A DNA stretch of 64,000 nucleotides from a virus. Taxonomy: Duplodnaviria > Heunggongvirae > Uroviricota > Caudoviricetes. Shown one piece after another: positions 10,237 to 10,896 of this stretch. Each line of letters opens with the position of its first letter. Position 1 is the first letter of the stretch. The notes under the pieces were generated by a model that saw only the letters and a program-made list of their open reading frames with translations, was not told the origin of the DNA and searched no databases. The DNA is taken from IMG/VR virus record IMGVR_UViG_3300049830_000314; one strand, given 5' to 3'. The position numbers and the translations under genes are program-made.

Positions 10237-10896
10237 TTAGAAAGCTATCTTGCCTTTCAAATATTCTTTCAATGACTTAGTTCGATTAGTAGTGTGACAA
10301 AGAACTGTGTTATCCTTAACTCGGATAGTTCTAGTTTTCCCGCCTCTCTCCCCGTAGCCAATTTGGTCATGACGCTCTTTTTGAGTTGATTTAGACTTTG
10401 CAGTAGCGCCAGACTCCTTAATTCTGGCGCGAATCACTGACATAGCATAAATCTTGTTCTGTAATTGGGAACGCTCGTTTTGGCAAGTAGCCACTAAGCC
10501 AGTCGGCTTATGAACGATGCGAATTGCAGTCTCATTCTTTTGCATGTGTTGACCACCAGCAGAAGAAGAACAGAACGTTGTGATTGTCAAATCTGAATCC
10601 TTGAGAATAACTTCTTGCTCACTCGGGACAGTTAAGACAGCAACAGTAACAAGAGACGTGTGAACACGCCCTTTGCGCTCTGTGGGGCTAACTCGTTGCC
10701 AGACATGACTTCCAGCTTCGTTGGCGAAAATATTGGTTTTATTTCCTTCGACTAAGAAAGAAATAAAACCATCGCGTTCATCTAAGACATTAACGTCAAA
10801 GACACTCCAAGACGCAAGCCTTGGCGTAAATGGAGAATTGGTCTTTGACCAATAGTTTGGACTCGGCACCGCCTTCTGCGGCTCTGATTTCAACAA
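10237..10896 (-). CDS. prfH: peptide chain release factor homolog lacking domain 1 (PrfH-like); GGQ motif present, tripeptide position reads SPT
   Basis: HVWQRVSPTERKGRVHTS (decoding-domain motif), SAGGQHMQKNETAIRIVHKPTGLVATCQNERSQLQNK (GGQ domain) and an RF C-terminal segment. 219 aa, versus about 360 for RF1/RF2. Confidence 0.75.
   Translation of the reverse strand: MLKSEPQKAVPSPNYWSKTNSPFTPRLASWSVFDVNVLDERDGFISFLVEGNKTNIFANEAGSHVWQRVSPTERKGRVHTSLVTVAVLTVPSEQEVILKDSDLTITTFCSSSAGGQHMQKNETAIRIVHKPTGLVATCQNERSQLQNKIYAMSVIRARIKESGATAKSKSTQKERHDQIGYGERGGKTRTIRVKDNTVLCHTTNRTKSLKEYLKGKIAF

Follow-up and report, generated by a model that had tools for sequence, protein, structure and literature searches.

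What does the release factor gene at positions 10,237 to 10,896 of the viral record IMGVR_UViG_3300049830_000314 encode, and by which route is its product made? The stretch of 64,000 nucleotides in which the gene lies was analysed at its full length and is called the window here. An earlier note, made from the sequence alone, described the locus as a 219-residue PrfH-like release factor standing without an RtcB partner. The present analysis indicates that the gene is split between two reading frames, which together encode a class I release factor of 223 residues. We consider it reasonably probable that this product is an RF1-lineage factor without domain 1, encoded by a probable huge phage and made solely through a +1 programmed frameshift of the prfB type. 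The gene structure and the RF1 lineage are firmly supported. The prfB-type +1 split, which the earlier note missed, is the most interesting feature of the locus.

Two reading frames and a frameshift cassette

The program-made list of open reading frames (ORFs) contains the 219-residue ORF as the earlier note had it (Table 1). However, residues 1-33 of this ORF (MLKSEPQKAV...SWSVF) are an out-of-frame read, and the true N terminus, MSKLIVEIRAAEGGAESKLLVKDQFSIYAKACVLECL, lies in another frame that ends at a TGA. This upstream part, ORF-A, is preceded by a Shine-Dalgarno (SD) sequence and codes for the first strand and helix alpha-5 (GG-x-E) of release factor domain 2. The GG-x-E element touches the first base of the stop codon in RF1 and RF2. 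The 3' end of ORF-A reads ...GTC TTG GAG TGT CTT TGA C on the minus strand. The frame of the 219-residue ORF is +1 relative to ORF-A, and its portion downstream of the junction, ORF-B, covers domain 3 (with the GGQ) and domain 4 as well as the remainder of domain 2. If the ribosome slips by +1 on CUU-U, the outcome would be ...ECL-DVNVLDERDG... and thereby the joined protein of 223 residues. The hallmarks of a prfB-type site are present, namely CUU UGA C with a long ORF in the +1 frame and an SD-like stimulator ~3 nucleotides 5' of the CUU. The 14-nucleotide motif GGAGNNNCTTTGAC occurs once in the window, where 0.02 occurrences are expected. Readthrough of the in-frame UGA was considered and rejected, as the sequence continues TGA CGT TAA and a second stop is met two codons on. 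Thus, only the +1 shift would be productive.

Table 1. Positions of the release factor gene elements and of other features in the window
Feature	Position	Strand	Basis
ORF with TTG start, 219 residues	10237..10896	minus	program ORF list
Short ORF in a different frame, overlapping the 219-residue ORF	10796..10927	minus	program ORF list
Shine-Dalgarno GGAG, 6 nucleotides 5' of the start codon (GGAG-actatc-ATG)	10916..10919	minus	sequence reading
ORF-A, 37 codons, ATG (start 10909) to CTT	10799..10909	minus	translation
+1 cassette GGAG-TGT-CTT-TGA-C (SD-like element, 3-nucleotide spacer, shifty CUU, UGA, 3' C)	10795..10808	minus	
In-frame UGA terminating ORF-A (sensor codon)	10796..10798	minus	
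ORF-B, +1 frame, GAC (Asp38) to TAA, 186 codons	10237..10797	minus	translation
Decoding tripeptide Ser-Pro-Thr, aligned with PxT of RF1	10681..10689	minus	PDB alignments
GGQ peptidyl-tRNA hydrolysis motif (AGGQ)	10549..10557	minus	translation, alignment
Truncated class I aminoacyl-tRNA synthetase-like gene, 445 residues, Ile/Leu/Met/Val-type catalytic core	12049-13386	minus	Pfam scan
Truncated GluRS/GlnRS (glutamyl-/glutaminyl-tRNA synthetase) catalytic-domain gene, 302 residues, adjoining the tRNA-Glu cluster	19958-20866	minus	Pfam scan
RNA ligase (PF09414)	27761..28480	minus	Pfam scan
Homologue of initiation factor IF-1 (clear infA)	27467..27751	minus	judged by eye
Thg1	48788-49837		Pfam scan
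SpoU methylase	36189-36707		Pfam scan
Transfer RNA (tRNA) clusters	6564-6811, 16453-16870, 20839-21342, 45511-45775, 53225-53388, 56249-58470		ARAGORN
GOLLD RNA	34450-34916	minus	Rfam RF02032, 154 bits (gathering score 150)
tRNA-like element with anticodon UCA (UGA-reading), inside GOLLD	34776-34847	minus	
Group I intron	15347-15538	minus	Rfam RF00028, 55 bits

Joining the frames extends the match to the Pfam PCRF domain from residues 45-85 (E = 1.8e-7) of the 219-residue ORF alone to residues 3-89 (E = 5.9e-14) of the joined protein and restores ~40 residues of domain 2, and the Pfam RF-1 domain follows at residues 98-199 (E = 3.6e-26). The AlphaFold2 model of the joined protein has a mean pLDDT (predicted local distance difference test) of 88 and a pTM (predicted template modelling score) of 0.71. 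In this model the junction falls in a loop between a helix (residues 15-34) and a strand (residues 38-45), with a pLDDT of ~96. The 15 closest database proteins (60-94% identity) each cover just 84% of the joined query and begin in the wrong frame with ..W(S/R)VFD.., the first 37 residues having been missed by the gene callers. More distant relatives of 217-245 residues cover the joined query fully in a single frame. In four related loci, a separate gene of 37 residues is called at the position of ORF-A.

The DNA of related loci was compared for 13 loci from independent samples or assemblies, which comprise 10 distinct sequences. In nine distinct sequences (65-95% identity), which form the window clade, ORF-A has 36-37 codons and ends in GGAG-NGT-CTT-TGA-C, and the +1 frame goes on as D(V/I)..L.(E/S)RDGF. 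The tenth and most distant sequence (locus L011, 48% identity) has GGAG-TCGG-CTT-TGA-C with a spacer of 4 nucleotides. Within the nine window-clade sequences, the cassette is invariant at 13 of its 14 positions, and flanking synonymous sites vary. The relatives likewise carry GGAG or GAGG before the same ATG. Counted by codon position, the pairwise differences among the nine clade members are 238/158/578 in frame A of the upstream part and 414/221/721 in frame B of the downstream part. Read in the frame of the 219-residue ORF, the upstream part would have its substitution maximum at position 2; the third-position peak arises solely in the shifted reading.

Lineage, domains and decoding loop

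The joined protein scored 189 bits with the NCBIfam model of prfA (TIGR00019; model positions 113-339 of 361) against an equivalog cutoff of 423, and 125 bits with prfB. The scores with PrfH (TIGR03072; 84.3 bits) and ArfB (28 bits) are under the respective cutoffs of 166.65 and 100. ArfB was rejected, as the protein fails this model and has a full decoding domain, whereas ArfB consists of the GGQ domain and a C-terminal tail. Sequence searches of PDB chains gave 147 bits for the RF1 of T. maritima and 122 bits for that of E. coli, ~85 bits for RF2, and 41 and 37 bits for PrfH. Structural comparisons of the model with Foldseek gave the same order, with template modelling (TM) scores of 0.90-0.91 for ribosome-bound RF1 (~2 Å over 226 columns), 0.83-0.86 for RF2 and 0.69 for PrfH at 20% identity. 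The PrfH chains are thus the weakest class I release factor matches by both sequence and fold.

The GGQ motif named in the earlier note is present and invariant in 32 of 32 aligned sequences. The PDB alignments also bear out the tripeptide reading of the note, which placed SPT, within WQRVSPTERKGRVHTS, where RF1 has PxT and RF2 has SPF. The first Pro of PxT is replaced by Ser and the Thr is retained, so that the tripeptide departs from the PxT pattern that marks RF1. The third-base pocket is of the RF1 type, with Gln three residues before the tripeptide and the His-Thr of GRxHTS (His-Thr-Ser) after it. The residue following the tripeptide is Glu (SPT-E), as in RF1, where PrfH is marked by an Arg (PMC1586002).

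The absence of domain 1, which the earlier note had noticed, is seen in the PCRF match, which begins at profile position 101 of 194. Neither the window nor 93 related loci gave a release factor domain 1 in tblastn searches with five bacterial RF1 N-domains (best E 0.4). A domain 1 encoded in an upstream ORF, which the note had named as what would overturn its reading, was rejected on this basis and because the gene directly upstream encodes a Clp_N protein. An upstream piece does exist; however, it is ORF-A and encodes the start of domain 2 with the GG-x-E helix. By its model scores, fold ranking and decoding loop, and since it has no domain 1, the protein is a domain-1-less class I release factor of the RF1 lineage and not a PrfH.

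Sequence comparisons of the individual domains showed that domain 3 (residues 96-165; window 10360-10570) is 70-76% identical to full-length bacterial RF1s, the named entries of which are metagenome-assembled genomes of Armatimonadota (Fimbriimonadaceae). Identity to the same RF1s is 35-39% in domain 2 and 19-31% in the C-terminal part, and domain 2 is 53-60% identical to that of other short phage factors. The gene is therefore a mosaic, as domain 3 is close to bacterial RF1 and domains 2 and 4 are far from it. The pattern suggests that the GGQ domain was swapped recently, and the Armatimonadota match hints at the host.

Related genes and known recoding systems

A profile scan of IMG/VR gave 399 relatives, of which the best 80 loci were assigned to classes by local tblastn. 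The proteins of these 80 are 217-253 residues long, all but one being 217-232 residues, so that none has a domain 1, and many of the loci belong to contigs of 100-500 kb. In 23 loci the frame shifts by +1 at the protein position of the window cassette (20 with CTT-TGA-C/G and 3 with CTT-TAG-C), most with an SD-like GGAGG or GGGGG, and a hand count of the contexts gave a strong SD-like element in 18 of the 22 distinct IMG/VR frameshift sites. The three UAG-type cassettes read GGAGGGGT-CTT-TAG-C and similar. In-frame stops are found in 50 loci, one or two per gene (67 TGA and 4 TAG), often where homologues have Trp, and the reading frame is intact in the remaining 7. With 73 of the 80 loci shifted or interrupted, nearly all members need recoding at UGA or, rarely, at UAG. 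Bacterial RF1 has Trp precisely at the shift position. Published huge phages carry both types: the manually curated 485-kb genome LR745208.1 has GCGGAGGGGT-CTT-TGA-C, with the +1 shift falling at the same place in the protein, and the gene of the 735-kb genome LR756501.1 has two in-frame TGAs.

Plain use of code 4 near the gene was considered as an explanation of the in-frame TGAs and found no support. In the flanks of the in-frame-stop relatives, ORF pairs are split by TGA 54 times vs. 50 times by TAA, and TGA ends 18% of the ORFs. The 50 kb around the gene of LR756501.1 follow the standard code, with 81% covered by code-11 ORFs, 12 of 51 ORFs ending in TGA and no suppressor tRNA found; LR756504.1 is ambiguous. 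The in-frame TGA relatives may represent programmed UGA readthrough in a release factor gene. In a rough neighbour-joining tree, the shifted, UAG-shifted and intact genes are interleaved, which suggests repeated gain and loss. Most relatives have the tripeptide PPT. SPT as a marker of UGA-type cassettes was not supported, as genes with a UGA-type shift have PPT, PPN or SPT and those with a UAG-type shift have PPT or PPN. The sensor codon changes between TGA and TAG among close relatives whose decoding loops are nearly identical. A well-formed tRNA(CUA) of the amber-suppressor type lies 1-4 kb downstream of the release factor gene in at least 12 relatives, and L012 of the window clade has one at 7897-7972. 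Transfer-messenger RNA (tmRNA) genes lie near the release factor gene in several relatives.

The window cassette has the same layout as AGGGGG-TAT-CTT-TGA-C, the prfB cassette of E. coli (PMC5009743). Common to both are the SD-like sequence, the 3-nucleotide spacer, the shifty CUU, the UGA and the C, as well as a short zero-frame ORF followed by a long +1 ORF with the functional part of a class I release factor. In prfB, UGA termination competes with a +1 slip of the peptidyl-tRNA-Leu from CUU to UUU that is stimulated by pairing of SD and anti-SD and by the weak UGA-C context (PMC5009743, PMC12421855). The scattering of gains and losses over the tree is also as reported for prfB (PMC12421855). 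However, the cassette here belongs to a gene of the RF1 and not the RF2 lineage, and it lies at codon 38 in domain 2, after helix alpha-5, whereas that of prfB lies near codon 26 in domain 1. Given the different site and the absence of domain 1, the phage cassette has an independent origin. The phage product probably does not read its own sensor codon, and some phage relatives use UAG. Among 12,753 surveyed genomes, programmed frameshifting was seen in prfB and not in prfA, with UAG never the sensor (PMC12421855). The phage gene therefore differs from prfA in its need of a frameshift, as well as in the missing domain 1, the SPT in place of PxT and the low model score; it shares with RF1 the GGQ, the Gln/His-Thr pocket and the Thr at tripeptide position 3, besides being closest to it in sequence and fold.

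PrfH (RFH), the partner of RtcB2, likewise has no domain 1 and keeps the GGQ and a decoding-like domain, but the phage factor differs from it in failing the model, in its RF1-like decoding loop and in the lack of an RtcB. PrfH is encoded directly downstream of rtcB, and its genes are not reported to depend on a frameshift for their expression, frame shifts being mentioned just among inactivating mutations (PMC1586002). Release factor genes of huge or recoded phages resemble the present gene in their place, as RF1 or RF2 genes in translation islands (10.1101/2021.08.26.457843, Borges et al.; PMC7162821, Al-Shayeb et al.), and the same short family is present in the genomes of Al-Shayeb et al. 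They are listed merely as RF1 or RF2 (PMC7162821, 10.1101/2021.08.26.457843, PMC10746230), and the window, by contrast, is not recoded. No mention of domain-1 loss, a frameshift or in-frame stops in phage release factors was found in those papers or in the other literature searched. Likewise, no description of a frameshift-dependent domain-1-less phage RF1 was found in that literature, although a paper outside the searched set is possible. A viral release factor gene that needs recoding at internal stops is known from Mimivirus and Megavirus (Jeudy et al. 2012, PMC3521657), in which frameshift and readthrough have been interpreted as autoregulation in the bacterial style (PMC3521657). However, those genes are of the eRF1 type, belong to giant viruses of eukaryotes and are unrelated in sequence, and they combine both recoding events in one gene, whereas each gene of the phage family has either a frameshift or in-frame stops. 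A design with in-frame UGA readthrough in a release factor gene was proposed decades ago; according to the review of Atkins et al., designs with an in-frame UGA or UAG are unknown in bacteria, and the review also mentions the giant-virus release factor gene with its readthrough and frameshifting (PMC5009743, PMC3521657).

Genomic surroundings and predicted role

The translation-related surroundings described in the earlier note were found again (Table 1). Window ORFs of at least 90 residues were scanned against Pfam, which gave, in addition to the genes in Table 1, a PurN-like formyltransferase, Clp_N and a 4HBT thioesterase; neither RtcB, whose absence the note had stated, nor a second release factor nor a tryptophanyl-tRNA synthetase (TrpRS) was found among them. 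Nor did RtcB turn up in the related loci, as far as their called genes were compared with Pfam. The gene order 4HBT - (aminoacyl-tRNA synthetase) - small ORF - Clp_N - release factor - 313-residue membrane protein - formyltransferase is seen again, complete or partial, in longer relatives, where it lies between tRNA-Leu and tRNA-Phe clusters. The IF-1 homologue is extended at its N terminus by a basic stretch rich in Asn and Arg and lies directly downstream of the RNA ligase gene. An ORF with an HNH-like motif (15623-16303) adjoins the group I intron.

ARAGORN gave 25 tRNA calls in the window, clustered by amino acid (3 Phe, 5 Leu, 5 Glu-type, 3 Tyr, 2 His and 5 Pro). Among the clustered genes are two for tRNA-Leu(GAG), which is the species expected to slip on CUU-U. 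Odd anticodon loops are seen in the calls at 20922-20992 and 58396-58470. A tmRNA call of ARAGORN (57721-58106, minus strand) overlaps two tRNA-Pro genes, has no Rfam tmRNA match at the gathering score and is probably a false positive. Transfer RNAs within the linker of GOLLD are known (PMC12286853); the acceptor stem of the tRNA(UCA) in the present GOLLD has two terminal mismatches, which makes a suppressor function doubtful.

The earlier note had linked the factor to a possible reassignment of stop codons. This link found no support in the window, which follows the standard code: code-11 ORFs of at least 100 codons cover ~76% of the coding strand, TGA ends ~25% of the ORFs, UAA makes up ~56% of the stops, and same-frame ORF pairs on the coding strand are split once by TGA vs. 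nine times by TAA. An origin from a huge phage is probable, as signalled by the GOLLD RNA, the tRNA islands and the relatives in huge-phage genomes. A PHROGs search with ten large window ORFs matched one family, of unknown function, so that the phage identity rests on indirect evidence. No match was found by megablast of window positions 8600-13400 against phage records, by a single-protein scan of IMG/VR, or with the strict DNA pattern of the cassette in IMG/VR or GTDB genomes.

A gating of the factor by UGA termination is likely the role of the cassette. Ribosomes would initiate at the ATG and read 37 codons, after which the tRNA-Leu on CUU would occupy the P site and UGA-C the A site, with the GGAG three bases upstream paired to the anti-SD of 16S ribosomal RNA (rRNA). 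Prompt recognition of the UGA would release a peptide of 37 residues and yield no factor. Slow decoding of the UGA would allow the peptidyl-tRNA to re-pair with UUU, and translation would go on in the +1 frame through the SPT loop, the GGQ domain and domain 4. Because the slip competes with UGA termination, the less capacity the infected cell has to terminate at UGA, the more factor would be made. At stop codons in the A site, the product most likely acts as RF1 does at UAA and UAG, binding the codon and hydrolysing peptidyl-tRNA; UAA and UAG are the default specificity given the RF1-like scaffold and third-base pocket. It would work without the contacts with RF3 and the L11 stalk that domain 1 gives. 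Such independence is expected from the absence of domain 1, since truncated RF1 releases peptides; in the passage of PMC1586002 that cites Mora et al., domain 1 is dispensable for codon-specific release and needed for RF3. With the specificity of RF1, the cassette would sense the RF2 of the host and not its own product, and by taking over UAA the factor might free RF2 for UGA, closing the feedback loop indirectly. We infer both the codon specificity and the physiological role.

Several points weigh against this interpretation. Gating a factor of the RF1 type by a codon specific to RF2 does not amount to classical autoregulation, and the position of the cassette indicates that it was not inherited from prfB. 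A load-balancing loop fits the high-GC relatives poorly, since TGA is the main stop there (43-60%). SPT lies off the PxT consensus and its central Pro is a trait of RF2, so that the specificity may differ from that of RF1. The recurring module of a release factor and a tRNA(CUA) is odd for a UAG-reading factor and hard to reconcile with it. No hallmark virion gene was found in the window, so that the phage origin is no more than probable. We also infer, from the sequence alone, that frameshifting itself takes place and responds to RF2.

An alternative is that the factor, with the same gene structure, itself reads UGA, being either omnipotent or RF2-like on an RF1 scaffold, and that the cassette is a true negative autoregulation as in prfB. 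We regard this as possible but doubtful. The Ser-Pro of SPT matches that of RF2 SPF, and by a rule attributed to Ito et al. 2000, tripeptide residue 1 reportedly sets base 2 and residue 3 base 3, from which S-x-T is said to read A or G at both positions. However, the tripeptide does not track the sensor codon, which switches between TGA and TAG with near-identical loops, and according to structural work the tripeptide alone does not set the specificity (PMC5776981). In bacterial cassettes, the sensor stop is always a codon that no factor but the regulated one reads (PMC12421855, PMC5009743), and a stop, nearly always UGA, interrupts the own ORF in 73 of the 80 loci, which is never the case in bacterial prfA (PMC12421855). 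The tRNA(CUA) genes 1-4 kb away in at least 12 relatives and that of L012 would also agree with a factor for which UAG is not a target. In RF2 variants that gain codons, toxicity has to be curbed by the frameshift (PMC7530605); on the other side, relaxed reading of base 2 in an RF1-like pocket with Gln and Thr would also admit UGG (Trp), which is toxic (PMC7530605). Should the factor read UGA, which we hold to be improbable, the family would have two autoregulation designs independent of prfB on the RF1 scaffold of huge phages, a CUU-UGA-C +1 shift and an in-frame UGA readthrough, and SPT would be a natural case of relaxed second-base reading.

A module for code change is unlikely. In this scheme an RF1-type factor would be made under UGA suppression with the tRNA(UCA) of the window and would sustain termination at UAA and UAG, and late genes elsewhere would carry in-frame TGA. 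RF1 is found together with a suppressor tRNA and TrpRS in TGA-recoded Jade phages (10.1101/2021.08.26.457843), and many relatives have in-frame TGA at Trp positions. However, the window has the standard code with no excess of TGA-split ORFs and no TrpRS among its Pfam-scanned ORFs, the tRNA(UCA) lies inside GOLLD and has the mismatched acceptor stem, and a UGA-reading tRNA would run the cassette into TGA-CGT-TAA and thus lower the output of the factor. The proposal of the earlier note, a solitary PrfH-like factor that rescues ribosomes on damaged rRNA or messenger RNA, is very unlikely. The missing domain 1, the RNA ligase in the window and the tmRNA genes beside the release factor gene of several relatives would agree with it, but the model score, the PDB and fold matches, the intact RF1-like decoding elements with Glu in place of the PrfH-specific Arg, and the absence of RtcB do not. 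A pseudogene or a one-base assembly or sequencing error is hardly credible. Single-base frame breaks are common in metagenomic contigs; however, this break falls at the same codon and in the same 14-nucleotide motif in 13 loci from independent samples, recurs in the 23 IMG/VR loci and in the curated LR745208.1, and coincides with a known functional prfB cassette, and both halves show coding-type substitution patterns. Domain match, database relatives, DNA of the relatives and structure together exclude such an artefact.

The CUU-UGA-C +1 frameshift is the textbook case of RF2 autoregulation and has been thought absent from RF1 genes. Sequence comparisons show here a prfB-type cassette that has arisen at another site, in RF1-derived, domain-1-less genes of large phages, along with relatives that carry an in-frame UGA or a UAG cassette. 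As factor and sensor codon are apparently uncoupled, these genes offer a natural test of what the cassette senses. The minimal release factors of domains 2-4, with the variant tripeptides SPT, PPT and PPN, could be of use in studies of specificity and in genetic-code engineering. They are also a warning for annotation, since gene callers truncate or split such genes and some pipelines call the 37-residue ORF-A separately. For the biology of these viruses, the finding suggests that large phages monitor how much capacity for termination the infected cell has, and adjust it.

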